From Laetmonice hystrix (lineage: Eukaryota), in assembly GCA_965235115.1 (NCBI GenBank), contig OZ249436.1, positions 310,001 to 374,000 of the forward strand: a DNA stretch of 64,000 bases. The letters run 5' to 3'. Positions 540 to 61,208 of the stretch are shown here, in pieces. A program made the translations under genes and the position numbers. The stretch's first letter is position 1; the number at the start of each line of letters is the position of its first letter. The notes under the pieces are model-generated. The model was not told the DNA's origin, did not search any database, and saw nothing but the letters and a program-made list of their open reading frames with translations.

Positions 540-1465
540 TGACCGGTTAGTGAGCTTTCCGTAACTTAAGGTTAGAGGACTGCTTTATTGACCGTGGTTA
601 GTGAACTTTCCATAAGGTTGGTGGATCGGTTTATTGACCGTGGTTAGTGAACTTTCCTTAAGGTTGGTGGATCAGTTTATTGACTGTGGTTAGTGAACTT
701 TCCGTAAGGTTGGTGGATCAGTTTATTGACCGTGGTTAGTGAACTTTCCTTAAGGTTGGTGGATCAGTTTATTGACCGTGGTTAGTGAACTTTCCTTAAG
801 GTTGGTGGATCAGTTTATTGACCGGTTAGTGAACTTTCCGTAAGGTTGGTGGATCAGTTTATTGACCGGTTAGTGAACTTTCCTTTAGGTTGGTGGATCA
901 GTTTATTGACCGTGGTTAGTGAACTTTCCGTAAGGTTGGTGGATCAGTTTATTGACCGTGGTTAGTGAACTTTCCTTAAGGTTGGTGGATCAGTTTATTG
1001 ACCGTGGTTAGTGAACTTTCCGTAAGGTTGGTGAATCAGTTTATTGACCGTGGTTAGTGAACTTTCTGTAAGGTTGGTGGATCAGTTTATTGACCGTGGT
1101 TAGTGAACTTTCCTTAAGGTTGGTGGATCAGTTTATTGACCAGTTAGTGGACTTTCCATAAGGTTGGTGGATCGGTTATTGACTCTGTAAGGTTAGTGGA
1201 TCGGTTTATTGACCGGTTAGTGGACTTTCTGTAAGGTTGGTGGATCAGTTTATTGACCGTGGTTAGTGAACTTTCTGTAAGGTTAGTGGATCGGTTTATT
1301 GACTGGTTAGTGGACTTTCTGTAAGGTTAGTGGATCGGTTTATTGACCGGTTAGTGAACTTTCTGTAAGGTTAGTGGATCAGTTTATTGACCAGTTAGTG
1401 GACTTTCTGTAAGTTTAGTGGATCAGTTTATTGACCAGTTAGTGGACTTTCCATAACGTTGGTGG
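540..1465. repeat. Minisatellite, 44-46 bp unit, ~20 copies
   Basis: ttattgaccgtggttagtgaactttccttaaggttggtggatcagt. Confidence 0.95.
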
Positions 1466-2609
1466 TTTTCCCCAGATACACCAGTTTCATCCACCGGTAA
1501 AGTTGACCTCCACGATTTGATCGTGGCTCATGCGGAGGCATACAACCACAAAATGAAACCCAGAATCAAGGTAGAAGTTCTACTTCACTACAGTAGCGAA
1601 GTCTCTGACACGCCGTGGGAAATGTTTCAATTACTCTGGCGTCAAGAGCGTCTCTTTAAGGCGTCAGGCAGTGCGCTTTAACGCTGATCTCCACTTGTCC
1701 ATCTTAAGTTTTAATGATTTACGGCTGCAGAAATCCCATCTGGAACTTTAGCAAAAAAAAAAGGAAGGGGGACGCAAGAATTTTCTACTGGTGCGAGTAG
1801 GTATCAAAGCGAAGCGGAACTCACCTTTAAAGGTGTGTAACTCTCAGGTAGACGTAATCTTTCCTTTTAGTCTCGTGCCGAACACTGCTGGCTGGCCTGG
1901 AGGCTGGCTGGAAGGCTGGCAGGCTGGCTGGCTGGCTGGTAGTAGGTGGCTGGCAGGTTGGGTAGCTGGCTTTCCCCAGTAATGTTCTAGGAAGCAGTGA
2001 GGTCAGGATGAGTCTGTGCTCGCTGGAGGGAGGCTGAAGACAGTTTGAGATAATTGGTTTCCAGAACCGTCTCAACTCCAGCCAAGGTGGGACAGAATCA
2101 CTAGAAATCCTACAAGTGTTGTCGTACTTCGGAGATGCTCGTTAGGAGCATGTATGTGTTTGTAAAACAGCCGCACTTCTGTCTCCTTAAGTGCTTAACC
2201 CCAGTGGATGGACTCGCTTTAAAACGCAGACAGGAGTTTTTGGAGATGCTTCACGCCTGAACTGGGAAGTAGTGAGTGAATTCACTCTCGTCACGTTGTA
2301 GTAGGGATGGAGAGACAGGCGCGCGCTGATCGTCATACCAACTGCAGCGGCAGTGTTGATGCTTCCTGTCTTGTAGTGGTTCGGGACGGGGTTTGGTTGC
2401 CAGGGACTGCGTGGATGGGGAGGGCAGAGCCTGTGTACGAGCTGGCTGGTTGGTTGGTAGAGCGACCGTTTGTCCAGGTGCTGCAGGCAGAGCGGCCGCC
2501 GGCTTGATGCGGGCGGGGCCGGTGTCCTTCCGCCCTTCCCAGTTCTCCGTTTGGGTGGCTGCATATTTGGGTGTGTTTGCATAGTTCTCTTGAAACTATT
2601 AGCAATTTC

Positions 2610-3266
2610 AGGCCCTGGTTTCAGAAAGGCTCTAATCAGCAAGCTGTAAGCTAAGCAGAGCTACGGGACATAAATCTTTCTAGATTGATTTTCATCGATA
2701 TTTTCACAGTGACATAGGCGCCAGAAGCGGGGGGGGGGAGGGGGGGGGCGACCGCCCCCTCAATAATCTGGTTGGGGGGGGCATCGCCCCCCCCCCAATA
2801 ATCTGTGATCATGAATTAAAAAAGCAGGTTTTTCCACATACAGTAGGCCTGTTGAAACCGTGACTTGGGTGCCTCAAAGACTGGGTCGATTGTCCTAATG
2901 ATACATTGTAACCTATTCATTCACGCCTTCAAAACATAAAAAATCCTGCCTCAAAATGGTGTAGAAAAGCGTTTTAATGTGTGTAGTTTTCAGAATTTTC
3001 TCAGGGAGGGCCTCCGACCTAACAATGTTGTAGCCTATGACTTTCGCTTCAGCTCTCTTGCCCCCCCCCCCCCCAATAATAATTTGCTCCCGGTGCCCCT
3101 GCACAGTGATAATAATTTAACCGTGGTGGTAATATTTTCACTGCGGGGAAAATATCTATGAAAATCAATATAGAAAAGTTTAATAGACCTCGTGGGCCAC
3201 CGTAGCCCAGCTTAGCTTCAAGCTTACTGCTTAGAGCCTTTCTGAAACCTTTCTGAAACCGGGCCA
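2610..3266. mobile_element. MITE with ~55-bp imperfect terminal inverted repeats, carrying a nested MITE
   Basis: ggccctggtttcagaaaggctctaa...gctacgg at left is the reverse complement of ccgtagc...ttagagcctttctgaaacc...gggcc at right. Confidence 0.7.
2713..3101. mobile_element. hAT-type MITE with 8-bp target-site duplication CACAGTGA
   Basis: TSD at 2705-2712 and 3102-3109; imperfect TIR CATAGGCGCCAGAAGC / GCTCCCGGTGCCCCTG. Confidence 0.75.
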
Positions 3267-3292
3267 AGGTATGCATTGCCTCACTTCTCTAA

Positions 3293-3706
3293 ATACTATA
3301 TTTTCTCTTCCATAAGTCGCTCCACAATTTTCCTATCCACCATTTATTATCGCCAATCTAAGGTACTATATTTTCTCTTCCATAATTCTCTCCACAATTT
3401 TCCTATCCACCATTTATTATCGCCAATCAAAGTACTATATTTTCTCTTCCATAATTCTCCCCACAATTTTCCTATCCACCATTTATTATCGCCAATCTAA
3501 GGTACTATATTTTCTCTTCCATAATTCTCTCCACAATTTTCCTATCCACCATTTATTATCGCCAATCTATAAGTACTATATTTTCTCTTCCATAATTCGC
3601 TCCACAATTTTCCTATCCACCATTTATTATCGCCAATCAAAGTACTATATTTTCTCTGCCATAACTCGCTCCACAATTTTCCTATCCACCATTTATTATC
3701 GTCAAT
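3293..3706. repeat. Minisatellite, ~70 bp unit, ~6 copies
   Basis: actatattttctcttccataa...ttattatcgccaatc. Confidence 0.95.
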
Positions 3707-4272
3707 CAGTTTGCAGACGACCAGAGTTGTGAATCCAAACTGCGACACGCGTGCGCACTTTGATGCCGCATGTATCAATAAGAAACCATGGCCACCCCCG
3801 GAGACCTGAGACCGCCGGAGAGCTGAGACTGGGACACCGGTTTAATACGGTGGGGGGAGTAGATGGTGGCGGCGTTTGTCAGGCGAGCCGTGCCGCCCGC
3901 AATGCCAGATGACACCCTCCCCGGCCCCCTTCGCCCAAACCTCCCTGAGTGTGAATAACCTCGTCAGGACCATTCACACCATCATCCCCTCGGGTCGGCC
4001 CGGCCAGGAGTCGTCGACCTTAGAGTCTAGTTAGGATTCCGTCAACATCCCTGCCATCGATTTTTATTCAGATCTTTGATATCTTCACTTAGTTTGGTTA
4101 ATGAATAGGCTGTGTGTAGGCGAGGTGTCCTCAATGACCAGTTTTACCTTGCGCTCATAATTAACCAGAACTGCCTTCTATACGTCGAGCCGCAGCTGCA
4201 CCGTTGGCGCCGACAAGTTGGGTGGGTGGGTGGGGGGAGTAGTAGATGGAACTGTTGCTGTGGTAAGCCCCC

Positions 4273-6111
4273 CTCGCACGACCTGCTGCAGTACGTTATT
4301 ATACGTGAGTGGCGTGTATTACTCGCACGACCGGCTGCAGTACGTTATTATACGTGAGTGGCGTGTATTACTCGCACGACCGGCTGCAGTACGTTATTAT
4401 ACGTGAGTGGCGTGTATTACTCGCACGACCGGCTGCAGTACGTTATTATACGTGAGTGGCGTGTATTACTCGCACGACCGGCTGCAGTACGTTATTATAC
4501 GTGAGTGGCGAGTATTACTCGCACGACCGGCTGCAGTACGTTATTATACGTGAGTGGCGTGTATTACTCGCACGACCGGCTGCAGTACGTTATTACACGT
4601 GAGTGGCGTGTATTACACGCACGACCGGCTGCAGTACGTTATTACACGTGAGTGGCGTGTATTACTCGCACGACCGGCTGCAGTACGTTATTACACGTGA
4701 GTGGCGTGTATTACTCGCACGACCGGCTGCAGTACGTTATTACACGTGAGTGGCGTGTATTACTCGCACGACCGGCTGCAGTACGTTATTATACGTGAGT
4801 GGCGAGTATTACTCGCACGACCGGCTGCAGTACGTTATTATACGTGAGTGGCGTGTATTACTCGCACGACCGGCTGCAGTACGTTATTATACGTGAGTGG
4901 CGTGTATTACTCGCACGACCGGCTGCAGTACGTTATTATACGTGAGTGGCGTGTATTACTCGCACGACCGGCTGCAGTACGTTATTATACGTGAGTGGCG
5001 TGTATTACTCGCACGACCGGCTGCAGTACTTTATTATACGTGAGTGGCGTGTATTACACGCACGACCGGCTGCAGTACGTTATTATACGTGAGTGGCGTG
5101 TATTACTCGCACGACCGGCTGCAGTACGTTATTATACGTGAGTGGCGTGTATTACTCGCACGACCGGCTGCAGTACGTTATTATACGTGAGTGGCGTGTA
5201 TTACTCGCACGACCGGCTGCAGTACGTTATTATACGTGAGTGGCGTGTATTACTCGCACGACCGGCTGCAGTACGTTATTATACGTGAGTGGCGTGTATT
5301 ACTCGCACGACCGGCTGCAGTACGTTATTATACGTGAGTGGCGTGTATTACTCGCACGACCGGCTGCAGTACGTTATTATACGTGAGTGGCGTGTATTAC
5401 TCGCACGACCGGCTGCAGTACGTTATTATACGTGAGTGGCGTGTATTACACGCACGACCGGCTGCAGTACGTTATTATACGTGAGTGGCGTGTATTACTC
5501 GCACGACCGGCTGCAGTACGTTATTATACGTGAGTGGCGTGTATTACTCGCACGACCGGCTGCAGTACGTTATTATACGTGAGTGGCGTGTATTACTCGC
5601 ACGACCGGCTGCAGTACGTTATTATACGTGAGTGGCGTGTATTACTCGCACGACCGGCTGCAGTACGTTATTATACGTGAGTGGCGTGTATTACTCGCAC
5701 GACCGGCTGCAGTACGTTATTATACGTGAGTGGCGTGTATTACTCGCACGACCGGCTGCAGTACGTTATTATACGTGAGTGGCGTGTATTACTCGCACGA
5801 CCGGCTGCAGTACGTTATTATACGTGAGTGGCGTGTATTACTCGCACGACCGGCTGCAGTACGTTATTATACGTGAGTGGCGAGTATTACTCGCACGACC
5901 GGCTGCAGTACGTTATTATACGTGAGTGGCGTGTATTACTCGCACGACCGGCTGCAGTACGTTATTATACGTGAGTGGCGTGTATTACTCGCACGACCGG
6001 CTGCAGTACGTTATTATACGTGAGTGGCGTGTATTACTCGCACGACCGGCTGCAGTACGTTATTATACGTGAGTGGCGTGTATTACTCACACGACCAGCT
6101 GCAGTACGTTA
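4273..6111. repeat. Minisatellite, 49 bp CpG-rich unit, ~37 copies
   Basis: ctcgcacgaccggctgcagtacgttattatacgtgagtggcgtgtatta. Confidence 0.97.
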
Positions 6112-6622: not shown

Positions 6623-6918
6623 ATACAGTTAGCGGTTTCATGAAGTTATGATACAGTTAGCGGTTTCACGAAGTTATGATACAGTTAGCACTTTCATGAA
6701 GTTATGATACAGTTAGCGGTTTCATGAAGTTATGATACAGTTAGCGGTTTCATGAAGTTATGATACAGTTAGCGGTTTCATGAAGTTATGATACAGTTAG
6801 CGGTTTCATGAAGTTATGATACAGTTAGCGGTTTCATGAAGTTATGATACAGTTAGCGGTTTCATGAAGTTATGATACAGTTAGCGGTTTCATGAAGTTA
6901 TGATACAGTTAGCGGTTT
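6623..6918. repeat. Minisatellite, 28 bp unit, ~10 copies
   Basis: atacagttagcggtttcatgaagttatg. Confidence 0.95.
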
Positions 6919-7305: not shown

Positions 7306-8283
7306 ATTTGGTGCCGGAAAGTTTTCCATCAATGACTGGGCGGTACGTTACTGTGACGACCGACTAGATGTAACCCTGCAGTAGATGTACCTGTGACAAA
7401 ACGTTTCGATATCTATAGAAGAATTTATTTGGTGCCGGTTATAAGTTTTCCTCAATGACTGGGCGGTACGTTACTGTGACGACCGACTAGATGTAACCCA
7501 GCAGTAGATGTACCTCTGACAAAACGTTTCGATATCTATAGAAGAATTTATTTGGTGCCGGAAAGTTTTCCTCAATGACTGGGCGGTACGTTACTGTGAC
7601 GACCGACTAGATGTAACCCAGCAGTAGATGTACCTGTGACAAAACGTTTCGATATCTATAGAAGAATTTATTTGGTGCCGGTTATAAGTTTTCCTCAATG
7701 ACTGGGCGGTACGTTACTGTGACGACCGACTAGATGTAACCCTGCAGTAGATGTACCTCTGACAAAACGTTTCGATATCTATAGAAGAATTTATTTGGTG
7801 CCGGAAAGTTTTCCTCAATGACTGGGCGGTACGTTACTGTGACGACCGACTAGGTGTAACCCTGCAGTAGATGTACCTGTGACAAAACGTTTCGATATCT
7901 ATAGAAGAATTTATTTGGTGCCGGTTATAAGTTTTCCATCAATGACTGGGCGGTACGTTACTGTGACGACCGACTAGATGTAACCCAGCAGTAGATGTAC
8001 CTGTGACAAAACGTTTCGATATCTATAGAAGAATTTATTTGGTGCCGGTTATAAGTTTTCCTCAATGACTGGGCGGTACGTTACTGTGACGACCGACTAG
8101 ATGTAACCCTGCAGTAGATGTACCTGTGACAAAACGTTTCGATATCTATAGAAGAATTTATTTGGTGCCGGTTATAAGTTTTACATCAATGACTGGGCGG
8201 TACGTTACTGTGACGACCGACTAGATGTAACCCTGCAGTAGATGTACCTCTGACAAAACGTTTCGATATCTATAGAAGAATTC
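7306..8283. repeat. Tandem repeat, ~121-124 bp unit, ~8 copies
   Basis: atttggtgccgg...gatatctatagaagaattt. Confidence 0.95.
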
Positions 8284-8794: not shown

Positions 8795-9080
8795 TCTGTC
8801 TCTATGTGTCCATCTGTCATGACCTGGCACTCACCCAACTGTCTGTCTGTCTGTCTGTCTGTCTGTTATGACCTGGCACTCACCCAACTGTCTGTCTGTT
8901 ATGACCTGGCACTCACCCAACTGTCTGTGTGTTTCTGTCTGTATGTGTCTGTCATGACCTGGCACTCACCCAACTGTCTGTGTGTTTCTGTCTGTATGTG
9001 TCTGTCATGACCTGGCACTCACCCAACTGTCTGTGTGTTTCTGTCTGTATGTGTCTGTCATGACCTGGCACTCACCCAAC

Positions 9081-9111
<31 letters not shown>

Positions 9112-9646
9112 ATGTGTCTATATGTCATGACCTGGCACTCACCCAACTGTCTGGCTGTCTGTCCGTCTGTTATGACCTGGCACTCACCCAACTGTCTGTC
9201 TGTCTGTATGTGTCTATATGTCATGACCTGGCACTCACCCAACTGTCTGGCTGTCTGTCTGTTATCACCTGGCACTCACCCAACTGTCTGTCTGTCTGTC
9301 TGTCTGTTATGACCTGGCACTCACCCAACTGTCTGTCTGTCTGTCTGTTATGACCTGGCACTCACCCAACTGTCTGTCTGTCTGTCTGTCTGTTATGACC
9401 TGGCACTCACCCAACTGTCTGTCTGTCTGTCTGTTATGACCTGGCACTCACCCAACTGTCTGTCTGTCTGGCTGTCTGTCTGTTATGACCTGGCACTCAC
9501 CCAACTGTCTGTCTGTCTGTCTGTCTGTTATGACCTGGCACTCGCCCAACTGTCTGTCTGTCTGTATGTGTCTGTATGTCATGACCTGGCACTCACCCAA
9601 CTGTCTGGCTATCTGTCTGTCTGTTATGACCTGACACTCACCTAAC
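8795..9646. repeat. Composite minisatellite: atgacctggcactcacccaac plus variable (TCTG)n
   Basis: ~19 copies; ends ~15 bp before the LIG1 acceptor. Confidence 0.95.
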
Positions 9647-9661: not shown

Positions 9662-31214
<21,553 letters not shown>

Positions 31215-31219
31215 CGTGA

Positions 31220-31470
31220 TGTGACCTAGATGTCTGAGATTGCAAATAGTGGGCAGCAGGAAGAGAGATGTACAGATCATAGTAACGTGACCTAGATATC
31301 TGAGATTGCACATAGTGGGCAACAAGAAGAGAGATGTACAGATCATAGTAACGTGACCTAGATATCTGAGATTGCACATAGTGGGCAACAAGAAGAGAGA
31401 TGTACAGATCATAGTAACGTGACCTAGATATCTGAGATTGCACATAGTGGGCAACAAGAAGAGAGATGAC
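31220..31470. repeat. Tandem repeat, 66 bp unit, ~4 copies, directly after LIG1 stop
   Basis: gtgacctagatatctgagattgcacatagtgggcaacaagaagagagatgtacagatcatagtaac. Confidence 0.93.
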
Positions 31471-31873: not shown

Positions 31874-32114
31874 TACCACTATAATTGTTTTGATGAGGTG
31901 AAATGGTGTACCACTATAATTGTTTTGATGAGGTGAAATGGTGTACCACTATAATTGTTTTGATGAGGTGAAATGGTGTACCACTATAATTGTTTTGATG
32001 AGGTGAAATGGTGTACCACTATAATTGTTTTGATGAGGTGAAATGGTGTACCACTATAATTGTTTTGATGAGGTGAAATGGTGTACCACTATAATTGTTT
32101 TGATGAGGTGAAAT
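31874..32114. repeat. Minisatellite, 35 bp unit, ~7 copies
   Basis: taccactataattgttttgatgaggtgaaatggtg. Confidence 0.95.
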
Positions 32115-33515: not shown

Positions 33516-33974
33516 GATCCATGCTAAATCGCGATGATTCCAAACATAATTTCACCAGCAAAAATGTTGCTTGCGGGCCCTGAAATATTTTTGCTTGTTA
33601 AGACTGTAAGGAAGAGACAGAAAAGAGATGGGGGGGGGGTACCACCTCATGACATGGTGACGCTCGGGCCGGTCGTAGACTGCCTGAATCGACCAAATGT
33701 TGACGGGTTGAGGGAACGTAAATTTGTCTCATGAAATGACAAGAATTAGGCGGGAAGCAGCACCAGACGTGACCGATTTATTATGATAGGCCCTACGGCT
33801 GTATGTGGTTACCACGCGGCCGTATCGGCCGACATCGCCAATATTAGTAGAGGCGACAATACTAGTAATGTCAACGTGCAAGTTGGAATGTAAAAAGACG
33901 TGATTTTTTAAAAGACCGTGTTTATTGTTCGGGTGAGGTGGACCTCGGGACGATGCATGTTGGATTTTTTTTTT

Positions 33975-46700: not shown

Positions 46701-48909
46701 AAATCTGTAATACTGACACGACACTTGGACAGATTTATAGCAGTAAATCTGTAATACTGACACGACACTTGGACAGATTTATAGCAGTAAATCTGTAATA
46801 CTGACACGACACTTGGACAGATTTATAGCAGTAAATCTGTAATACTGACACGACACTTGGACAGATTTATAGCAGTAAATCTGTAATACTGACACGACAC
46901 TTGGACAGATTTATAGCAGTAAATCTGTAATACTGACACGACACTTGGACAGATTTATAGCAGTAAATCTGTAATACTGACACGACACTTGGACAGATTT
47001 ATAGCAGTAAAATTATTTTAAGGACGACAGCAGCTAATTCCCTTTGGGCCTTTCAATCCGGTGAAATATATGATCGTTATGACAAGTGAAAGCTCACGCT
47101 CTTCCTCATTGTGTAGTCAGTTCTTGTCAAATCCAATTGTTATCCAGGACAAACTCCTCCTGTAGCAGAGATTCTGCGTGTCATTCAGGATCAAATAATT
47201 ACTACGACTGTCTACACATGATTTCCGTCCTCGCATAAAATTATTTTGACTTGCACATAATTAGTAATAAATATGATGGTAGCTAGGATAGCCATCCATT
47301 TAAAGTATGGTCCAGAGGGAAATAAATAAAAGTTACACCATGTCTAGTCATAACACCAAGTATGTAAAGCAACTTAAAGGTGAAGAAAATACTTCTGCAA
47401 ACTCCTGAGTGTGAGTTTGGAAAAATGGTTTCAAGTAGGGCAGTGTCATTTAAAGTGCTTTCCACTGCTCAGATTTCTTATAAAATAGTTTAAATACACA
47501 TGGTACAGGTAGGTACACTGTAGACACTGTATATGGAGATGTTTGTGTATTGTGTTAGGTGGGTTTCTTTACCTGCCCCCCCCCCCCCACGACATTCCCG
47601 AGCCATTTCGCACCCGTTTCTTCTAATTTGTTAGACAGTAAAGCTGGAAGGAAAGTAAAATATATCAAATCGACCCTACAATCGATAGTTATCTTTAAAT
47701 ATTGACTTATTCAATCAGTTTGGTTTTGGTAAAGGTTTTGAAATGATAAATATTGCTGGTCTGTGCCGTTGTAGTCAAGAGACGCTGAGATTCTCCAGTT
47801 GACTGAATCCACTGTGGGTGTTTCAGGATTCCTCAGACACTGTGTCTGACTCACGATCCGAGGTGAAGTCTGACGATGATGGCGACGACTCGAGTAGCTC
47901 CGACGATAAAGACTTGTCCAGCAGCTCGTCCTCGAGCAGTGACAGTGATGACAGCTCAGACAGCAAGGATGAGGACATACCACTCAAACAGCTGACGGAC
48001 ACTAAGAAAGACAGTGCTGATGGTAAGGTGGACCACAATGACAAGGACAGGTCTACAGACTCTGCGTCCTGCTCGACAGAGGGCAGCACCCAGCAGAGCT
48101 CCCCACCTATCGTCCTCAAACCTTCCGTACCGCCCTCCCGCCGGCAAAAGGTGAAACCTATCAAACTGCAGATGAAACGGTCCGTGCTCAAATACCCAGG
48201 CCCAGGTCGGCCTAGCACCAAGGACCCTAACAAACCGCGCAGACCTAGAGGTCGGCCGCCCAAGAACCCACGGCTTCACGCCCAGAAGGGTGCAGCCAAG
48301 GCCTCTAAACCTCCCACCAACCAAAAGATGACCCCGAAACCAACAGCAGTACCCAAGGAGAAGAGTTCAGCAGGCCCAGGACGGCCACCTACAGCGCAGC
48401 CCACTGTCCCTCCCGTAGTCATCCAGCTCACCCTCCCCCACGGCCACAGACTCGCCACGGGTCTGACGGCAGCCGCCACCTCCAAACGTAAACACAAGGA
48501 GGAGTCGACTGTCACCACCCCCGCCTCTCAAACACACGCTCACACACCATCACCCACAGCGCCCCCTGATGAAGCGGAGGCGACCAGCCCCAAACAGAAG
48601 AAAGTTGAAGAAGCAGTGGGAACAAATGGTGACCATGTGGAGCAGGCCGCACAGCCGGGCGAGGTGGCCGAGTTGGGGAAAGAGGAAGGGCCGGGTGGGG
48701 AGGCAGTGACAGCACCGACCGGGGCCGAACAGCCGGCAGTAACAGCAGCCTCAGCCCCGGAGGTCCGCTCCTTCTGGAGACCACCACCCGAGACAAAACC
48801 ACTGCTGGACCAGGTTCTCATAACTGACGTCACATCCGCTGACGTCACAGTGACGGTGCGGGAGAGCAGTACCGATAATGGTTTCTTTAAACACCGCGGG
48901 GAGGACTGA
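37704..48909 (+). CDS. Pc: Polycomb-group chromobox protein (Pc / CBX2-4-6-7-8 family), spliced. Exons: 37704-37772, 37874-37917, 38029-38094, 43226-43289, 47827-48909 (~441 aa)
   Basis: Chromodomain [56 protein letters not shown]-hook-like [16 protein letters not shown]-hook; C-terminal Pc box [25 protein letters not shown]...GFFK; GT-AG introns with consistent phases. Vertebrate paralogue cannot be assigned. Confidence 0.93.
37874..37917 (+). CDS. Pc: CBX exon 2 ([15 protein letters not shown])
   Basis: ttgcag / GTAAGT; chromodomain aromatic cage. Confidence 0.95.
38029..38094 (+). CDS. Pc: CBX exon 3 ([21 protein letters not shown])
   Basis: tttcag / GTAGGT. Confidence 0.95.
38110..39178. 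repeat. GC-rich tandem repeat, ~104-112 bp unit, ~10 copies, CBX intron 3
   Basis: gagctctcggtcggtgggccaggccctggccgaggctgcagccatgtccagtctcac... Confidence 0.95.
41229..42290. repeat. Minisatellite, 51 bp unit, ~21 copies
   Basis: aagagatctttaacgtacccaggctactctgtctagtctcgtatcgaggcc. Confidence 0.96.
42312..42862. mobile_element. MITE-like element with GGCCGGTGT termini and subterminal palindromic GTGGTAAA/TTTACCAC motifs
   Basis: GGCCGGTGT / ACACCGGCC; repeated gtggtaaagtgacccgggggtcaatttaccac at both ends; internal ttagggtta. Confidence 0.6.
43226..43289 (+). CDS. Pc: CBX exon 4 ([21 protein letters not shown])
   Basis: cacag / GTAAGT; KRGPKPK AT-hook-like motif adjacent to chromodomain in CBX proteins; phases fit exons 3 and 5. 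Confidence 0.88.
43485..44280. repeat. Tandem repeat, ~149 bp unit, ~5 copies
   Basis: gttatcatgtcagaatattgtcagtgaagctcc...ttacggtactcctga. Confidence 0.95.
45029..47010. repeat. Minisatellite, 44 bp unit, ~45 nearly identical copies
   Basis: aaatctgtaatactgacacgacacttggacagatttatagcagt. Confidence 0.98.
47827..48909 (+). CDS. Pc: CBX exon 5 (Ser/Asp-rich, AT-hook, Pc box)
   Basis: tttcag acceptor; 360-codon ORF ending in Pc box then TGA. Confidence 0.93.
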   Translation, partial: DSSDTVSDSRSEVKSDDDGDDSSSSDDKDLSSSSSSSSDSDDSSDSKDEDIPLKQLTDTKKDSADGKVDHNDKDRSTDSASCSTEGSTQQSSPPIVLKPSVPPSRRQKVKPIKLQMKRSVLKYPGPGRPSTKDPNKPRRPRGRPPKNPRLHAQKGAAKASKPPTNQKMTPKPTAVPKEKSSAGPGRPPTAQPTVPPVVIQLTLPHGHRLATGLTAAATSKRKHKEESTVTTPASQTHAHTPSPTAPPDEAEATSPKQKKVEEAVGTNGDHVEQAAQPGEVAELGKEEGPGGEAVTAPTGAEQPAVTAASAPEVRSFWRPPPETKPLLDQVLITDVTSADVTVTVRESSTDNGFFKHRGED

Positions 48910-48915: not shown

Positions 48916-49602
48916 GCCAACCCGGTTCTCTGACAGTCGCGGCTCTGGGCGGCTGGGTTTGCTTTAGTGCGCCAACCCGGTTCTCTGACAGTTGTGGCTC
49001 CTGGCGGCTGGCTCTCTGACAGTCGCGGCCCTGGGCGGCTGGGTTTGCTTTAGTGCGCCAACCCGGCTCTCTGACAGTCGCGGCCCTGGGCGGCTGGGTT
49101 TGCTTTAGTGTGCCAACCCGGTTCTCTGACAGTCGTGGCTCCGGGCGGCTGGGTTTGCTTTAGTGCGCCAACCCGGTTCTCTGACAGTTGTGGCTCCGGG
49201 CGGCTGGGTTTGCTTTAGTGCGCCAACCCGGCTCTCTGACAGTTGTGGCTCCGGGCGGCTGGGTTTGCTTTAGTGCGCCAACCCGGCTCTCTGACAGTCG
49301 CGGCTCTGGGCGGCTGGGTTTGCTTTAGTGCGCCAACCCGGTTCTCTGACAGTCGCGGCCCTGGGCGGCTGGGTTTGCTTTAGTGCGCCAACCCGGCTCT
49401 CTGACAGTCGCGGCTCTGGGCGGCTGGGTTTGCTTTAGTGCGCCAACCCGGTTCTCTGACAGTTGTGGCTTCGGGCGGCTGGGTTTGCTTTAGTGCGCCA
49501 ACCCGGTTCTCTGACAGTCGCGGCCCTGGGCGGCTGGGTTTGCTTTAGTGCGCCAACCCGGCTCTCTGACAGTCGCGACTCTGGGCGGCTGGGTTTGCTT
49601 TA
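48916..49602. repeat. Minisatellite, 55 bp unit, ~12 copies, directly after CBX stop
   Basis: gccaacccggttctctgacagtcgcggctctgggcggctgggtttgctttagtgc. Confidence 0.96.
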
Positions 49603-50003
49603 GGGGTGGTTCAACATTTTCAACATTTTCACAAGCGCTAGGGGGGAGGGGGTTAACAGCCAATGTACGCTTTTTTTGAAATCTGAAAAATGTCGATCTG
49701 TAATTGATCAGTCAAGCAGCCCACATACCACCTCTCCCCTTTGTGCGAATCACAGGGTGATGAATATACAAGATCTGCTCACCAGGGGCTTTATGGGGAT
49801 ATTTGTTTTGATGGACCTCCCTACATCACTGACCTATTCTTCGGTTAACTGTGGCCACAAGTAATGATCTAATCTCATCCTTGGTCATCATATAGATCTA
49901 TAATGTAAAAAAACAGACATTTTCTTATGTACGCTTTTGGGAGGGGGGGGGGGTCATCAAAAAGAGTACTCTTTGTACGCTTGTGAAAATGTTGAACCAC
50001 CCC
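49603..50003. mobile_element. PIF/Harbinger-type MITE, TTA target duplication, in CBX 3' region
   Basis: Perfect TIR GGGGTGGTTCAACATTTTC / GAAAATGTTGAACCACCCC; TTA both sides; removing it restores gctttagtgc of the flanking repeat unit. Confidence 0.88.
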
Positions 50004-50712
50004 TTAGTGCAGTACAGCACAAAAATGTACAATTGAACAGAAAAAATGATTTTTTAATGAAATTCACGACTCGTCGCAATGTACTCTCTCCTGGAATTTC
50101 TCGTGGAGAGCAAAGACGAACAGTCTAAAACTCTTCACAATTATCAAAAACAGGTGCTGCCCGCTGACACTTTTTTTTCAAAACTTTTGTCCAGACTCTC
50201 AAATTTTTCACTGTATATTAGCGAAATTTTTCACTGTATATTAGCAAAAGTTTTCAGTGTATATTAGCGAATGAACTCAGCCAAATTGCTCCGGCGTCAC
50301 GCACGAGAGCAACGTTACAGTAATCCTGTCAACAATGTCAGTTTGTATCCAAGGGTGTGCGTAAAACAAACACCTTTGGTCACAATGTAAATTGTCTTGC
50401 CAGTGGCGTTAATTTTTGTACAAAAGTTAACTCTGTTAACATAGAGGGATATAACTGAGCTAAACGTTAGCATGATGAAATACGATAACTGAGCTAAACG
50501 TTAGCATGATGAAATACGATATGTCATCTGGGCTGACCAGGTGTTCCACTGTGCTGTGATCATATTACTGCACATACATTGTACATACGCCAGTGTATAT
50601 ATACATAGTAGGCTTAAGTGTTATACACGTGCATGAACTCGCTTGTATAGTGTACATCTCTAGACATTCAAACCCATTCACAAGTGTACCCACTTAAATA
50701 CATTACACACAC

Positions 50713-50868
50713 GCATGGATGTCGACACCTTATGCTATGCGAATGGGTGCAGTAATCTTAGGGCCTGGGTTCGATTCCTGTAGAGGACTATACAACTTTT
50801 CTCTTTAGGGACATTGTCAAAGTAATTGGGTTACCCCTGATGCCCGTGCATTTCAAAAGAAAAATACA
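50713..50868 (+). mobile_element. 5'-truncated copy of the SINE-like element at 51028
   Basis: ~155 bp apparently identical to 51049-51204. Confidence 0.65.
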
Positions 50869-51509: not shown

Positions 51510-52398
51510 GGTGGAACACGTGGTCTATCTGTATGTCCTGTTGATTGCCAGTGTTGTACAATCCTGGTTGTGAACCAGGACACAGTGGAACACGTGGTCT
51601 ATCTGTATGTCCTGTTGGTTGCCGGTGTTGTACAATCCTGGTTGTGAACCAGGACACAGTGGAACACGTAGTCTATCTGTATGTCCTGTTGATTGCCAGT
51701 GTTGTACAATCCTGGTTGTGAACCAGGACACAGTGGAACACGTAGTCTATCTGTATGTCCTGTTGATTGCCGGTGTTGTACAATCCTGGTTGTAAACCAG
51801 GATACAGTGGAACACGTGGTCTATCTGTATGTCCTGTTGATTGACGGTGTTGTACAATCCTGGTTGTGAACCAGGACACAGTGGAACACGTGGTCTATCT
51901 GTATGTCCTGTTGATTGCCAGTGTTGTACAATCCTGGTTGTGAACCAGGACACAGTGGAACACGTGGTCTATCTGTATGTCCTGTTGATTGCCAGTGTTG
52001 TACAATCCTGGTTGTGAACCAGGACACAGTGGAACACGTGGTCTATCTGTATGTCCTGTTGATTGCCGGTGTTGTACAATCCTGGTTGTGAACCAGGACA
52101 CAGTGGAACACGTGGTCTATCTGTATGTCCTGTTGATTGCCAGTGTTGTACAATCCTGGTTGTGAACCAGGACACAGTGGAACACGTGGTCTATCTGTAT
52201 GTCCTGTTGATTGCCAGTGTTGTACAATCCTGGTTGTGAACCAGGACACAGTGAAACACGTGGTCTATCTGTATGTCCTGTTGATTGCCAGTGTTGTACA
52301 ATCCTGGTTGTGAACCAGGACACAGTGGAACACGTGGTCTATCTGTATGTCCTGTTGATTGCCAGTGTTGTACAATCCTGGTTGTGAACCAGGACACA
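51510..52398. repeat. Minisatellite, 74 bp unit, 12 copies
   Basis: gtggaacacgtggtctatctgtatgtcctg...tcctggttgtgaaccaggacaca. Confidence 0.97.
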
Positions 52399-53120: not shown

Positions 53121-54553
53121 GGACTCTTTCAACTCCTGGCAGTCGGTCTGGGCCAGAGTTCACAAATAGCATTCAGTTATTGAACATCCAGTCATGGGTG
53201 GACTCTTTCAACTCCTGGCAGTCGGTCTGGGCCGAGTTTACAAATAGCATTCAGTTATTGAACGTCCAGTCATGGGTGGACTCTTTCAACTCCTGGCAGT
53301 CGGTCTGGCCCAGAGTTTACAAATAGCATTCAGTTATTGAACGTCCAGTCATGGGTGGACTCTTTCAACTCCTGGCAGTCGGTCTGGGCCAGAGTTTACA
53401 AATAGCATTCAGTTATTGAACGTCCAGTCATGGGTGGACTCTTTCAACTCCTGGCAGTCGGTCTGGGCCAGAGTTTACAAATAGCATTCAGTTATTGAAC
53501 GTCCAGTCATGGGTGGACTCTTTCAACTCCTGGCAGTCGGTCTGGCCCAGAGTTTACAAATAGCATTCAGTTATTGAACGTCCAGTCATGGGTGGACTCT
53601 TTCAACTCCTGGCAGTCGGTCTGGGCCAGAGTTTACAAATAGCATTCAGTTATTGAACGTCCAGTCATGGGTGGACTCTTTCAACTCCTGGCAGTCGGTC
53701 TGGCCCAGAGTTTACAAATAGCATTCAGTTATTGAACGTCCAGTCATGGGTGGACTCTTTCAACTCCTGGCAGGTCGGTCTGGGCCAGAGTTTACAAATA
53801 GCATTCAGTTATTGAACGTCCAGTCATGGGTGGACTCTTTCAACTCCTGGCAGTCGGTCTGGGCCAGAGTTCACAAATAGCATTCAGTTATTGAACGTCC
53901 AGTCATGGGTGGACTCTTTCAACTCCTGGCAGTCGGTCTGGGCCAGAGTTCACAAATAGCATTCAGTTATTGAACGTCCAGTCATGGGTGGACTCTTTCA
54001 ACTCCTGGCAGTCGGTCTGGGCCAGAGTTCACAAATAGCATTCAGTTATTGAACGTCCAGTCATGGGTGGACTCTTTCAACTCCTGGCAGTCGGTCTGGG
54101 CCAGAGTTTACAAATAGCATTCAGTTATTGAACGTCCAGTCATGGGTGGACTCTTTCAACTCCTGGCAGTCGGTCTGGGCCGAGTTTACAAATAGCATTC
54201 AGTTATTGAACATTCAGTCATGGGTGGACTCTTTCAACTCCTGGCAGTCGGTCTGGGCCGAGTTTACAAATAGCATTCAGTTATTGAACGTCCAGTCATG
54301 GGTGGACTCTTTCAACTCCTGGCAGTCGGTCTGGGCCAGAGTTTACAAATAGCATTCAGTTATTGAACGTCCAGTCATGGGTGGACTCTTTCAACTCCTG
54401 GCAGTCGGTCTGGGCCGAGTTTACAAATAGCATTCAGTTATTAAACGTCCAGTCATGGGTGGACTCTTTCAACTCCTGGCAGTCGGTCTGGGCCAGAGTT
54501 TACAAATAGCATTCAGTTATTGAACATTCAGTCATGGGTGGACTCTTTCAACA
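53121..54553. repeat. Minisatellite, 78-79 bp unit, ~18 copies
   Basis: ggactctttcaactcctggcagtcggtctggg...gtccagtcatgggt. Confidence 0.97.
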
Positions 54554-54771: not shown

Positions 54772-55731
54772 GGCCCTTACCGCTGGCGAGTTTCAACACC
54801 GGGATGGCCCTTACCTTGTGTGGTGGGCCCTTCCCGCTGGCGAGTTTCAACACCGGGATGGCCCTTACCTTGTGTGGTGGGCCCTTACCTTGTGTGGTGG
54901 GCCCTTACCGCTGGCGAGTTTCAACACCGGGATGGCCCTTACCTTGTGTGGTGGGCCCTTACCTTGTGTGGTGGGCCCTTACCTTGTGTGGTGGGCCCTT
55001 ACCTTGTGTGGTGGGCCCTTACCTTGTGTGGTAGGCCCTTACCTTGTGTGGTGGGCCCTTACCGCTGGCGAGTTTCAACACCGGGATGGCCCTTACCTTG
55101 TGTGGTGGGCCCTTACCTTGTGTGGTGGGCCCTTACCTTGTGTGGTGGGCCCTTACCTTGTGTGGTGGGCCCTTACCGCTGGCGAGTTTCAACACCGGGA
55201 TGGCCCTTACCTTGTGTAGTGGGCCCTTACCTTGTGTGGTTGGGCCTTACCTTGTGTGGTGGGCCCTTACCGCTGGCGAGTTTTAACACCGGGATGGCCC
55301 TTACCGTGTGTGGTGGGCCCTTACCTTGTGTGGTGGGCCCTTCCCGCTGGCTACTTTTAACACCGGGATGACCCTTACCTTGTGTAGTGGGCCCTTACCT
55401 TGTGTGGTGGGCCCTTACCGCTTGCGAGTTTTAACACTGGGATGGCCCTTACCTTGTGTGGTGGGCCCTTACCTTGTGTGGTGGGCCCTTACCGCTGGCG
55501 AGTTTTAACACCGGGATGGCCCTTACCTTGTGTGGTGTACCCTTACCGCTGGCAAGTTTTAACACCGGGATGGCCCTTACCTTGTGTGGTGGGCCCTTAC
55601 CTTGTGTGGTGGGCCCTTACCTTGTGTGGTGGGCCCTTACCTTGTGTGGTGGGCCCTTACCGCTGGCAAGTTTTAACACCGGGATGGCCCTTACCTTGTG
55701 TGGTGGACCCTTACCTTGTGTGGTGGGCCCT
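54772..55731. repeat. Composite minisatellite of ~20 bp and ~33 bp units
   Basis: ggcccttaccttgtgtggtg and ggcccttaccgctggcgagtttcaacaccgggat. Confidence 0.95.
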
Positions 55732-55795: not shown

Positions 55796-56332
55796 CACGC
55801 CCCTCCCCTGCACAACACGTGTGCCACGCCCCTCCCTCGCCCAACACGTGTGAAAAACACACGCCCCTCCCCGCCCAACACGTGTGAAAAAAACACGCCC
55901 CTCCCCCCGCCCAACACGTAAAACAACACGCCCCTCCCCTGCACAACACGTGTGAAAAAAATGCCCCTCCCCCGCACAACACGTGTGAAACAAACACGCC
56001 CCTCCCCCGCACAACACGTGTGAAAAAACGCCCCTCCTCCGCACAACACGTGTGAAAAAACGCCCCTCCCCCGCACAACACGTGTGAAAAAAAACAGCCG
56101 TTTACAATATTAGCACAGACAAGCATATTGTGTATAATTGTTCCTTTAAATATTAGCACAGACAAGCATATTGTGTATAATTGTTCCTTTAAATATAGCA
56201 CAGACAAGCATATTGTGTATTGTTCCTTTAAATATTAGCACAGACAAGCATATTGTGTATTGTTCCTTTAAATATTAGCACAGACAAGCATATTGTGTAT
56301 TGTTCCTTTAAATATTAGCACAGACAAGCATA
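55796..56332. repeat. Two adjacent short arrays (~38-41 bp and ~41-43 bp units)
   Basis: cgcccctccccgcacaacacgtgtgaaaa (55796-56095); atattagcacagacaagcatattgtgtattgttcctttaa (56107-56332). Confidence 0.9.
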
Positions 56333-56428: not shown

Positions 56429-57331
56429 TTTAGGTCAGAGGCAGACTCCACGGCTGGTTGTGGGGACGATCCCTGGTGTCGGTCTGACCCTTAGGTCAGA
56501 GGCAGACTCCACGGCTGGTTGTGGGGACGATCCCTGGTGTCGGTCTGACCCTTAGGTCAGAGGCAGACTCTATGGCTGGTTGTGGGGACGATCCCTGGTG
56601 TCGGTCTGACCCTTAGGTCAGAGGCAGGTTCCACGGCTGGTTGTGGGGACGATCCCTGGTGTCGGTCTGACCCTTAGGTCAGAGGCAGACTCCACGGCTG
56701 GTTGTGGGGACGATCCCTGGTGTTGGTCTGACCCTTAGGTCACAGGCAGACTCTATGGCTGGTTGTGGGGACGATCCCTGGTGTCGGTCTGACCCTTAGG
56801 TCAGAGGCAGGTTCCACGGCTGGTTGTGGGGACGATCCCTGGTGTCGGTCTGACCCTTACCACGGCTGGTTGTGGGGACGATCCCTGGTGTCGGTCTGAC
56901 CCTTAGGTCAGAGGCAGGTTCCACGGCTGGTTGTGGGGACGATCCCTGGTGTCGGTCTGACCCTTACCACGGCTGGTTGTGGGGACGATCCCTGGTGTCG
57001 GTCTGACCCTTACCACGGCTGGTTGTGGGGACGATCCCTGGTGTCGGTCTGACCCTTAGGTCAGAGGCAGACTCCACGGCTGGTTGTGGGGACGATCCCT
57101 GGTGTCGGTCTGACCCTTAGGTCAGAGGCAGGTTCCACGGCTGGTTGTGGGGACGATCCCTGGTGTCGGTCTGACCCTTAGGTCAGAGGTAGGTTCCACG
57201 GCTGGTTGTGGGGATGATCCCTGGTGTTGGTCTGACCCTTACCACGGCTGGTTGTGGGGACGATCCCTGGTGTCGGTCTGACCCTTAGGTCACAGGCAGG
57301 TTCCACGGCTGGTTGTGGGGACTATCCCTGG
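56429..57331. repeat. Minisatellite, 61 bp (and 44 bp) unit containing the last ~15 codons and stop of the ankyrin/SOCS gene, ~16 copies
   Basis: ttaggtcagaggcaggttccacggctggttgtggggacgatccctggtgtcggtctgaccc. Confidence 0.96.
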
Positions 57332-58583
57332 TGAGCTGGAAGTCCGTGAGATGGAGGTTCAGAGTTGCCATGGTAGTTCCAACCCGCTGTACCAGACACG
57401 AACAGTTGACCAGGCGGACAGTAAATGTTTTACTGGCCCAAGTTTTCTCCGGGTCTCGTTCCATCATCACAAACTGTGGCACCGAGTTCGGCGACTTGCT
57501 CTCCGATATCCTCACCGTGAACAAATCGGGAACTAATACAGACATGATAAGTTCTCTGGGCAGAGGAAGCTTGTTGAGTCGTTGTATGAAAAAAGATCCA
57601 GCGCTTGACTGAATAAGTTGTTTCCTTATCACCTCGAGAGAAATGTGCTTGAGCGAGGGAAACTGCTTGAGAACCTCAGCGTCAAATGGATTCCTTGAAC
57701 AGTGTAATCTGCCGCGGTTATACTCGAGGGGAAAGTCTTGACCGTGGAGCAGCAAAGTCAGAATCCCACGATACTTCAAACATGACTGCCTGACCCAAAT
57801 CTTTGAAAAAAGACATCTTCCCTTTTTATCTAAGATGTCCATATTACAGCCAGCCCAAAGCAAGTTATACAAATTGGGTTGAAAGGCGAATTGTTCTGCC
57901 AGGAAATGAAGATGCGAACTTAACTTTAGATCAGAGACAAGTGCAGGATGTTGTCGCAGGAGTTGCTGGAGCAAACTGCCGCACCTGTTGTCCCTTACAA
58001 TGTTATGAATGAGGGCGCGGTCGTTGGGAATCGCACCATATTGTATGAAGGTCTCTGTCACATCCAGATTCTGGCCATCCACAGAGAACACCAAGTCGAG
58101 GGCTGTTTGACCGCGTTTGTTTTTCAACCGGTGGTCGGCACCGTTTTCTAGGAGGAACGCGATGACGTCAGTTTTACGTGATTGGTGCGTCACAAAGCCG
58201 TCCCCCGTCAGAACGTGCAGGGCGGTATCACCGACCGAGTTGGAGGCGTTAACGTCGGCTCCAAGCTGTACCAGCAGTCGTATGACGGAGGGCAAGAAGA
58301 GGTGTGTGGCCGTGTGGAGTGGCGTGTTCCCATCGTGGTCCACCAGCGCCACCTGAGTTCCGTCAAACTTCAGTAGCTGACGTAGAATGTTTTTATCGTC
58401 CGTATAGATAGCCAGGTGGATGGCCTTGTGTCCGCCGCGCGTAACGTCATTTGTGACGTCACCGGTGCCGTTCATGAGCAGTTTCAAAATGTCGCGGAGA
58501 GCGGCACGTCTCTCTGTCACTGACATTTGTGACGGAGTCGGCGTCCGCTTGGCCAGACGCCGCAGTTTGAATCGTTTGATCAT
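57285..58583 (-). CDS. Ankyrin-repeat and SOCS-box protein (ASB-like), apparently single exon, 432 aa
   Basis: Ankyrin repeats GGHKAIHLA, DGNTPLHTA..LLVQLGADVN, GDTALHVL..LLENGAD, RGQTALDL; SOCS-box-like FPSLKHISLEVIRKQL...LNKLPLPREL; in-frame stops upstream of the ATG. Confidence 0.82.
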   Translation of the reverse strand: MIKRFKLRRLAKRTPTPSQMSVTERRAALRDILKLLMNGTGDVTNDVTRGGHKAIHLAIYTDDKNILRQLLKFDGTQVALVDHDGNTPLHTATHLFLPSVIRLLVQLGADVNASNSVGDTALHVLTGDGFVTHQSRKTDVIAFLLENGADHRLKNKRGQTALDLVFSVDGQNLDVTETFIQYGAIPNDRALIHNIVRDNRCGSLLQQLLRQHPALVSDLKLSSHLHFLAEQFAFQPNLYNLLWAGCNMDILDKKGRCLFSKIWVRQSCLKYRGILTLLLHGQDFPLEYNRGRLHCSRNPFDAEVLKQFPSLKHISLEVIRKQLIQSSAGSFFIQRLNKLPLPRELIMSVLVPDLFTVRISESKSPNSVPQFVMMERDPEKTWASKTFTVRLVNCSCLVQRVGTTMATLNLHLTDFQLTRDSPHNQPWNLPVT

Positions 58584-59019
58584 ACTGTCACCATTCTCTC
58601 ATTACGTGTGGATCTATAGCCTGGCTGTCCGCCTGACCTCTTCTGTCGGCATCCCCTGCACTGCTTCGCACAGGGTTAAATGCGGAGCCCCTCAGGCCTA
58701 TTATCGGAATGCATGTAGGCTCTCAATCTATAGCTCGGCTAGAAGCTGAACGAGGTATAGCATGCGGCCTGCGACAATCGGTGAGAATCCAATGGCAGTT
58801 TGTCGGGTAAACACGACAGACACGACCCAGTGCACCGTGACATTAGTCTGGCATGGAAAAACGAGTTGAGACCAAGACACACAGTGGGTGGAAGTAATGT
58901 GGGGCATAATGCAATCCCACTCGGTGTAAGTCACCATAGCCGTCATTTAGTTGTTCTCATGGCGAGGAATAGGCCGCCTATCGAAGAATAGGCTACGTGA
59001 AGAAGGCTACACGTCATTT

Positions 59020-59187
59020 CAGTAGTGTAGGAAGGAAAAAAATATTGGGGGGGGGGGGGGGGGCAGAAGTGACGTCATAATGACTTGCGCCTATGTTTTT
59101 GCATTGAGCCATGCAGTCATTTTATAAATATTGGGGGGGGGGGGGGGGGGCAGCAGCCCCTTCTGCCCCCAGCTTTCGACACCCCTG
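59020..59187. mobile_element. Short MITE with 5-bp target duplication CATTT
   Basis: CAGTAGTGTAGG / TCGACACCCCTG termini; G-runs inside. Confidence 0.55.
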
Positions 59188-59577
59188 CATTTCACTCAAG
59201 GACATGCATGCGATTGGATCTATAGACCTATGCCTTACCGTGGACCTAAATCGCTTTTAAAATCGCTTTTTCTACGTATGTTGATAGCTTGGATCCATGT
59301 TTGAAACAATGTCTGAAACAATAGGCCCCTATTTGTGCTTTGAGTTGTCACTGATGGTCTTCGTTGTTTGATTATTTGTTTGATATTTTAATGTTTCAGT
59401 ATAAGTTAAAGTATTATATTATGTATAAGTTAAGTTTTTATGTTGCTTATTTATCAATTGAGTTGGTAGGCCTAGGCCTATCTGGATACATCGGGAAACC
59501 AGCAAATGGGAAGAAAGATCAGAGGCAGGTCTGTGGATTTTAAAACTGTCAGTTGCTTGGTTTCTTGGGTTAAACAC

Positions 59578-61208
59578 AAGCAGTCACTGAGGTAGAGTGT
59601 AGCGTGGGGTTTGGTATTAAAGCAGTCACTGAGGTAGAGTGCAGCGTGGGGTTTGGTATTAAAGCAATCACTGAGGTAGAGTGCAGCGTGGGGTTTGGTA
59701 TTAAAGCAGTCACTGAGGTGGAGTGCAGCGTGGGTAGAGACGCGTCACTTTTCTCAGTGGCGCCACCTCGTGGCAATTGACGAACTCTATTTTTACACGT
59801 TGCAACGCGTTTTTTACGTCACTCAATGCTGTCAACAACACGGCAATGCAGAGGCAGAGTCAAGTCTGGCCGCTTCGCATCCCAGAAACAGTTTGACAAA
59901 AGGCTTCACGATGCCAGAAAAATGTACTTGACTATGCGTTTTAACATTGGAGTCTATGGGACCGATAAGACCCTTGGTAGTGAAAATGGCGATATCTCAT
60001 GAATTTCCATGGTGACATATGATTTTTTTTAATCTAAAGTGTTCAAAACAAGTCATGCAACAATTCTGAGAAGTATTTTCAGAATCTCTGGGTTAGAAAT
60101 GTCTGAAAAAAATCTTCTCTCTTTTAATTCGAACCAAAAATTTCACGTATCTCTCTCTACTCTAGACTAGTAGTGCGAGTTGAAGGCCTATCTTCAAATG
60201 CTCATAACTCAGGATCCGATATGGTGACCCGCCATTTTCTTTGCATCAAAATACTCGAAAAATGTAGAATTATTTTATGTGAAAGTAGCCTGAAAATCTC
60301 TGGGTCAGAAATTTTTGGCTTATTGGTGTCGAGTCCCTTGGGGTTTGGTATTAAAGCAGTCACTGAGGTAGAGTGTAGCGTGCGGTTTGGTATTAAAGCA
60401 GTCACTGAGGTAGAGTGTAGCGTGCGGTTTGGTATTGAAGCAGTCACTGAGGTAGAGTGTAGCGTGGGGTTTGGTATTAAAGCAGTCACTGAGGTAGAGT
60501 GTAGCGTGGGGTTTGGTATTAAAGCAGTCACTGAGGTAGAGTGTAGCGTGGGGTTTGGTATTAAAGCAGTCACTGAGGTAGAGTGCAGCGTGGGGTTTGG
60601 TATTAAAGCAATCACTGAGGTAGAGTGCAGCGTGGGGTTTGGTATTAAAGCAGTCACTGAGGTGGAGTGCAGCGTGGGGTTTGGTATTAAAGCAATCACT
60701 GAGGTAGAGTGTAGCGTGGGGTTTGGTATTAAAGCAGTCACTGAGGTAGAGTGTAGCGTGGGGTTTGGTATTAAAGCAGTCACTGAGGTAGAGTGCAGCG
60801 TGGGGTTTGGTATTAAAGCAGTCACTGAGGTAGAGTGTAGCGTGCGGTTTGGTATTAAAGCAGTCACTGAGGTAGAGTGTAGCGTGGGGTTTGGTATTAA
60901 AGCAATCACTGAGGCAGAGTGTAGCGTGGGGTTTGGTATTAAAGCAATCACTGAGGTAGAGTGTAGCGTGGAGTTTGGTATTAAAGCAGTCACTGAGGTA
61001 GAGTGTAGCGTGCGGTTTGGTATTAAAGCAGTCACTGAGGTAGAGTGTAGCGTGCGGTTTGGTATTGAAGCAGTCACTGAGGTAGAGTGTAGCGTGGGGT
61101 TTGGTATTAAAGCAGTCACTGAGGTAGAGTGTAGCGTGGGGTTTGGTATTAAAGCAGTCACTGAGGTAGAGTGTAGCGTGGGGTTTGGTATTGAAGCAGT
61201 CACTGAGT
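59578..61208. repeat. Minisatellite, 42 bp unit, in two blocks (59578-59735, 60340-61208) split by ~600 bp unrelated DNA
   Basis: gggtttggtattaaagcagtcactgaggtagagtgtagcgtg, ~4 + ~21 copies. Confidence 0.95.

Follow-up and report, generated by a model that had tools for sequence, protein, structure and literature searches.

Dense minisatellites of probable local origin in a gene-rich 64-kb region of Laetmonice hystrix

Minisatellites are tandem arrays with units of ~7-180 bp (PMC9071541). In amphioxus, 'mirage' minisatellites with units of 10-160 bp are described from Adh3, the globins BflGb6 and BflGb9, troponin C and PGBD5 (PMC3087553, PMC3902484). In the gene-rich compartments of zebra finch dot chromosomes, minisatellites reach a density of 51.3% and colocalize with intron-enriched motifs (bioRxiv 10.1101/2025.10.14.682431). 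In the terminal 5 Mb of human chromosomes, variable number tandem repeats (VNTRs) with long units are enriched 7-fold overall, and those that are also GC-rich 21-fold; this enrichment is linked to recombination (PMC7608644). Minisatellite expansion at exon-intron boundaries is reported for human duplicated genes (PMC2812944), and intronic minisatellites for the metallothionein genes of earthworms (PMC12783039). Two models of minisatellite birth, slippage at non-contiguous repeats and duplication between direct repeats of 5-10 bp, are described in PMC3389668 and account for only 6% of the transposon-derived repeats studied there. Here we describe positions 310,001 to 374,000 of contig OZ249436.1 from Laetmonice hystrix (the window, that is, the whole 64,000-nucleotide stretch analysed), a gene-rich region in which 31 minisatellite arrays probably arose from local sequence.

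Tandem Repeats Finder (TRF), run on the window, returned 107 overlapping rows that merge into 44 tandem loci totaling 28,919 bp, or 45.2% of the window. A preliminary description of the same DNA had proposed this run after judging by eye that about 30 arrays with units of 13-150 bp fill some 40% of the sequence, and the dense arrays were confirmed. There are 31 arrays of at least 100 bp, which occupy 28,137 bp (44.0% of the window) and range from 111 to 3,532 bp in length, with units of 13-149 bp. Copies within arrays are mostly 92-100% identical, and the mean GC is 0.46. All 31 have the dimensions of minisatellites (units of ~7-180 bp, head to tail, with array lengths reaching a few kb). Most repeat one unit, as had been supposed; five are compound (8813, 15433, 32554, 54806, and 56430). 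The open frames arising from the arrays are periodic. The arrays, referred to by their first coordinate, and one seed-stage duplication are as follows, where a whole-number end means that the array stops at most 3 bp from a whole copy.

538..1465, 46/44-bp unit
3288..3708, 69-70-bp unit, whole-number end
4273..6111, 49 bp x 37.5
6623..6918, 28 bp x 10.6
7306..8282, 123 bp x 8, whole-number end
8813..9646, compound, a tetranucleotide run plus a fixed part; stops 15 bp upstream of a LIG1 exon
10502..11708, 42 bp x 28, inside a LIG1 intron
12515..13687, plus strand, mirage-type array, 53 bp x 22, at a LIG1 exon-intron boundary
14351..14533, 13 bp x 14, whole-number end
15433..17004, compound, 15-16-bp subunit with 61-bp and longer higher-order units; 32 bp upstream of an exon
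18731..19131, 40 bp x 10, 100% identical, whole-number end; 28 bp upstream of an exon
20013..20587, 66 bp x 8.8, inside the longest intron of LIG1
24441..25812, 28 bp x 49, whole-number end; 18 bp upstream of an exon
26779..30310, 62 bp x 56; begins 34 bp past a donor, in an intron skipped in a spliced contig
31221..31468, 66 bp x 3.8; begins 6 bp past the LIG1 stop
31874..32114, 35 bp x 6.9, 100% identical
32554..33526, compound, mixed 33- and 50-bp periods
38123..39177, 104-112-bp unit; begins 28 bp past a CBX donor
40236..40346, 22 bp x 5, whole-number end
41224..42290, 51 bp x 21
43478..44244, 149 bp x 5.2; the last copy runs on with a deletion
45029..47011, 44 bp x 45, whole-number end; runs of adjacent copies share one variant
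48927..49603, 55-bp unit; begins 17 bp past the CBX stop
50451..50521, seed-stage duplication, two exact 34-bp copies overlapping by 3 bp
51511..52398, 74 bp x 12, whole-number end
53121..54552, 79 bp x 18
54806..55731, compound, 20- and 34-bp subunits
55796..56092, 32-34-bp unit
56101..56332, 40 bp x 5.7
56430..57333, compound, 61/46 bp; the end copy contains the final 49 bases and the stop of the ankyrin frame
59578..61207, 42-bp array in two pieces, 59578-59734 and 60339-61207, interrupted by a 604-bp insert

The units are largely unrelated to one another. When the 31 unit consensuses were compared with the window by BLAST, the sole full-length cross-match joined 59578-59734 with 60339-61207, and the remaining matches between units were only 17-24 bp long. 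Among 30 units (the split 42-mer array counted once), the sharing of k-mers of 6-12 bases rose above 200 dinucleotide shuffles at none of the seven k values. The earlier statement that no two loci share a unit is thus upheld by both tests, apart from this one pair. A common core motif is not supported by the same comparison, word sharing being no higher than in the shuffles. Units prone to form hairpins are unsupported as a general rule: 19 of the 30 units fold better than their shuffles (p = 0.096), and the longest stem is unexceptional against shuffles (p = 0.20) and against random window segments (p = 0.28). The individual units of 45029, 26779, and 53121 do fold well. A scan with Rfam gave no match at the gathering score. 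The absence of shared words and of a significant hairpin excess fits the sequence-independent process that had been proposed, and no unit behaved as a member of a dispersed family found at many loci, either within the window by BLAST and k-mers or for the two arrays tested by read depth (below). The 604-bp insert in the 42-mer array (59735-60338) is bounded by imperfect 13-bp inverted ends, matching by eye at 10 of 13 positions, with a 4-bp repeat on either side, and looks like a non-autonomous DNA transposon. The subunit of 15433-17004 contains the complement of what we take to be the telomere hexamer. The window holds 51 such words and no tandem pair of that hexamer on either strand, and the resemblance is probably due to chance.

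Local birth is shown at one of the 31 arrays, the one at 12515-13687 in the gene for DNA ligase 1 (LIG1). Its 53-bp unit is made of the final 37 bases of a LIG1 exon, the donor site, and 16 intron bases. The unit thus lies over an exon-intron boundary and repeats its splice signal, which is the hallmark of a mirage. Copy 1 is the coding copy and holds the end, at 12551, of an exon that aligns to named LIG1 proteins. The donor is kept in all 22 full copies; four of these translate like the exon, and 18 carry derived changes. The LIG1 reading frame is open when the first donor (12551) is used, and the spliced contig evidence concerns only the last two LIG1 introns, not this donor. The commonest derived variant of the unit creates a 6-bp stem that is absent from copy 1, as would be expected for templated correction of a near-palindrome; the folding z-score of the unit is only -1.1. 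The preliminary description had also pointed to a local source in the ankyrin gene stop and in the interior of a short interspersed element (SINE), and it is for the LIG1 exon end, one array of 31, that the source is borne out. At the former, the ankyrin frame ends 49 bases within array 56430..57333. At the latter, array 41224 lies ~600 bp from the tRNA-like, SINE-type head of a candidate element on the minus strand, with what we take to be a resemblance to promoter boxes and with no second copy within the window.

Local birth is supported more widely by in-phase ends and by two-copy seeds. The arrays with at least 5 near-full copies, excluding the compound arrays 8813, 32554, and 54806, were decomposed into their copies (28 arrays). 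For the test of end phase, four with an incomplete TRF row, the two pieces of the split array, 55796 (a ragged A run), and 56430 (a TRF row short of the true end) were dropped, leaving 20. Nine of these 20 end on whole copies (at most 3 bp off), compared with 1.9 expected under random phase (P = 2.5e-5). A single local duplication that then expands by whole units leaves such ends. Two of the 20 arrays have end overlaps of 7 and 8 bp, and one of 13 bp. Outside the large arrays there are five short, low-copy tandem duplications that have the form of seeds, including the exact 34-bp pair listed above. Variants occur in runs or in short alternating blocks of neighboring copies (45029, 26779, and 12515), and exchange between neighboring copies is expected to give such runs and blocks in minisatellites. 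The first and last copies had been described as fading into the unique flank, and this applies to a minority only. Among 26 of the 28 decomposed arrays, the end copies are no more diverged than the interior ones (p = 0.27 for the first, p = 0.86 for the last). Because TRF stops at mismatches, this comparison is biased against fading, and the flanks beyond the ends were therefore checked; of the 11 arrays whose last copy is partial, three had leftover similarity in the 3' flank and none in the 5' flank.

Sequencing reads were used to examine two of the 31 arrays, 31221..31468 and 31874..32114, through contig depth on 30320-32550 in four runs (X1-X4). Contig depth is not a copy number and was taken only as a ratio to the flank within a run; bins without cover inside the two arrays were not counted as absence. 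The ratio of unit-contig depth to flank was 1.71, 2.84, 5.84, and 6.70 in X1 and 1.50, 2.47, 5.57, and 6.56 in X2, compared with the 2, 3, 6, and 7 expected from the window. In X3, the ratio for the 35-mer was 6.4, which fits. For both arrays, these ratios argue against an assembly artifact and against many exact copies elsewhere. The presence of the arrays in reads, another of the proposed checks, is supported to this extent, for two arrays by the contigs of X1 and X2.

Taken together, we consider it probable, at about 0.72, that the arrays are single-locus minisatellites produced by local duplication, growth and homogenization, and selective filtering in a gene-rich region of high tandem duplication. 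In the initial step, slippage during replication or the repair of a break would double a local piece of 13-150 bp head to tail, with little or short end homology; for arrays other than the LIG1 donor array, this is presumed to have occurred in the same way. Misaligned copies would then undergo unequal exchange, gene conversion, or slippage, so that the array grows and is homogenized while its end phase is kept, and new variants and internal deletions would spread to adjacent copies and yield compound units. This second step is suggested by the variant patterns and by established minisatellite biology. Finally, selection would purge arrays that break exons or splice signals, and the survivors would be found in introns, past stop codons, and between genes. 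Arrays beside exons may last longest, where flanking deletions would be intolerable and the sequence would be older than the transposon-filled parts. The enzymes involved, the present activity, and the regional cause we infer; the high rate of tandem duplication might reflect nearness to a chromosome end. The arrays would be by-products, and no function is proposed for them. The process inferred is the published model of minisatellite birth and not a new mechanism. It agrees with the local amplification put forward in the preliminary description in the origin of the LIG1 donor array, the end phases, the seeds, and the depth at two of the 31 arrays. Rolling-circle copying of intron lariats was dropped by eye, as inspection turned up no unit extending from a donor to a site that resembles a branch point; this was not a formal test.

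Placement was examined in relation to three genes.

9662..31214, plus strand, LIG1 (DNA ligase 1), 17 exons, one open frame of ~668 codons
37704..48909, plus strand, CBX/Polycomb-type gene, 5 exons, 441 codons plus stop, C-terminal CBX7_C motif
57285..58598, minus strand, ankyrin-repeat open frame, 437 codons from stop to stop

All three remain in frame despite the arrays, and the placement of the arrays is not random. The test covered the 24 arrays between 8,300 and 59,500, each collapsed to one unit, with six arrays outside this range excluded. Ten of the 24 lie within 35 bp of a coding-exon edge, compared with 3.6 expected (P = 0.0015). After removal of the two arrays that overlap exons, the count is 8 of 22, compared with 1.4 expected (P = 4e-5). 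All three stop codons adjoin an array, at 6 bp (LIG1), 17 bp (CBX), and 0 bp (ankyrin, overlapping). Whole-number ends are retained at three of the exon-adjacent arrays (18731, 24441, and 26779). These results are what would be seen if births were targeted, with transcription- or splicing-linked breaks or chromatin boundaries at exon edges starting duplications there and after stops, and ordinary turnover growing them. However, the 35-bp threshold was picked after viewing the data, with unmapped exons and the ends of untranslated regions uncounted, and the excess varies with the threshold: P = 0.07 at 20 bp (overlaps allowed), 0.003 at 50 bp, 0.011 at 100 bp, and 0.048 at 200 bp. The 12 wholly intronic arrays are uniformly positioned within their own introns (P = 0.54). 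In the LIG1 introns only, with the longest dropped, 4 of 6 arrays are close to an exon, with P = 0.023 at 35 bp, 0.069 at 50 bp, and 0.12 at 100 bp. Moreover, 14 of the 24 arrays are more than 35 bp from any mapped exon. We take the excess to be real and most likely due to age and survival beside constrained sequence, and targeted birth is an unlikely explanation. Were sequence-independent duplication in this genome steered to coding boundaries, that is, to splice junctions and stop codons, which we doubt, exon edges would be birth sites of minisatellites. Mirages would then be the most conspicuous sign of a general connection between gene anatomy and tandem duplication, and steered duplication would routinely supply a non-chordate with new splice sites and introns.

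Mobile elements with internal repeats, or dispersed satellite families inserted here, could also account for many of the arrays. The window does contain element debris, namely a reverse transcriptase frame at 34446-35468, dispersed and inverted repeats, and the SINE-like head near 41224, and transposon-derived tandem repeats are common in human (PMC3389668). This origin is nevertheless improbable, as depth agrees with the local copy number at the two tested arrays, the LIG1 donor array comes from an exon, and random truncation would not be expected to give in-phase ends. In the 42-mer array, the array was the target of the 604-bp insert. That the arrays are assembly artifacts, collapsed or inflated by the assembler, is very improbable. 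The read check covers two of the 31 arrays, neither over 250 bp, and no contig spans all of 30320-32550, yet unit contigs and depth fit the assembled copy numbers at both arrays in X1 and X2, and the shared, patterned variants among copies are not something that an assembler invents.

Several points weigh against the interpretation of the arrays as single-locus products of local duplication. The evidence by depth that an array is confined to one locus in the genome extends to two of the 31 arrays, and this test detects exact 31-mers only, with diverged relatives outside its reach. The four runs represent one sample, perhaps the source of the assembly, and within that one sample no alleles differing in copy number or skipping an array were seen among the runs on 30320-32550. 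In X3, the 66-mer ratios were 0.97 and 1.74 compared with 2 and 3 expected, where the flank depth is uneven. The GC of the arrays tracks that of their 60-bp flanks (rho 0.44, p = 0.014, n = 30), a point in favor of this interpretation, but the link is lost with 300-bp flanks (rho 0.16, p = 0.39). The end copies, no more diverged than interior ones, contrast with the lancelet report of edge copies escaping homogenization. Finally, the intact ends of the three exon-adjacent arrays imply that these arrays were not carried to the exon by deletions into the array, and favor birth near the exon.

In LIG1, the 17 exons located have AG/GT at all internal junctions in the window, and the exon model starts at 9662, with the 5' exons outside the located set. 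The gene was identified through one exon that matched named animal DNA ligase 1 proteins. Arrays make up 51% of the LIG1 intron length (9,978 of 19,545 bp). A quick tree of the window protein and 35 of 120 listed matches places this protein in a weakly supported group of 19 rows that includes molluscs, a brachiopod, a nemertean, and an annelid. The nearest row by path, among the matches listed, is Lamellibrachia, and no well-supported set includes the window protein. By this tree alone, the host is probably a lophotrochozoan and perhaps an annelid. One contig of run X4 connects the final pair of LIG1 exons through a GT..AG skip, and the loose end of this contig matches the preceding exon by eye, so that the intron with the 3.5-kb array (26779..30310) has been removed from it. 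From this exon joint, we infer that X4 is RNA. Another X4 contig, over 31439-31903 between the two arrays that follow the LIG1 stop, is deeper than the spliced LIG1 contig and may be 3' untranslated sequence or another transcript. In the ankyrin frame, a SOCS box match falls under the Pfam cut-off (E 0.076).

Other features were observed between and within the genes. On the minus strand at 34446-35468, a frame of 341 codons contains a reverse transcriptase domain (Pfam RVT_1, E 4.7e-26); it is probably a fragment of a long interspersed element, and is the only one of 34 scanned frames with a Pfam match. It lies in the interval 33,527-38,122, which is free of arrays of at least 100 bp. GC-rich open frames of 95-157 codons occur at 1827-2660 on the minus strand, and the three that were scanned had no Pfam match. 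The long LIG1 intron has a 590-bp direct repeat of 79% identity (21108-22151) and the window end has a 269-bp inverted repeat of 92% identity (63159-64000), both likely to be transposon remains. A 156-bp portion of a SINE-like element is doubled at 100% identity without being in tandem, at 50713-50868 and 51049-51204, 336 bp apart.

The birth of a minisatellite is seldom caught. This region holds every stage, beginning with exact two-copy seeds and ending with 56-copy and compound arrays, among intact and alignable exons, and can serve as a test bed in which birth rate, end homology, and placement would be directly measurable once a second individual or species is compared. LIG1 intron size is seen here to be largely set by local repeats, and the known range of mirage-type repeats is extended to a probable lophotrochozoan. 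Since every part of the mechanism has already been published, the region is of value as a test bed unless the exon-edge bias is a birth bias; only the excess near exon edges and at stop codons could raise its significance. No title or abstract opening was found on this pattern in an annelid or on a test of exon-edge bias, a weak negative that leaves most subscription papers uncovered.

Compared with the amphioxus mirages, the LIG1 donor array is alike in its tandem copies of an exon-intron boundary, its spare splice signals, and its intact gene. It is, however, the only one of the 31 arrays that spans a splice site, most others adjoining exons or lying away from them, and by the LIG1 tree the present host is not a lancelet. 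The human repeats at exon-intron boundaries (PMC2812944) belong to recent paralogs within segmental duplications, whereas the genes here are of housekeeping type with no second copy in the window. The human subtelomeric VNTRs are similar in that many lie in introns of single genes, and differ in being GC-rich, which the present arrays are not. With the published birth models, the arrays share a unit taken from local sequence and, in some cases, an incomplete last unit or a short flanking repeat. The 7- and 8-bp overlaps of two arrays fall within the 5-10 bp of the flanking-repeat model, while 9 of the 20 arrays have an end overlap of at most 3 bp, too short for it. The zebra finch dot chromosomes are similar in density, which here is 44% over the window and 51% within the LIG1 introns, although the finch units are degenerate, 10-30 bp long, and associated with G-quadruplexes (G4), whereas those described here are 13-149 bp long, mostly 92-100% identical, and of GC 0.46. 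The density of arrays in this region therefore has precedent, and the region is a dense example of known minisatellite behavior and not a new kind of element.

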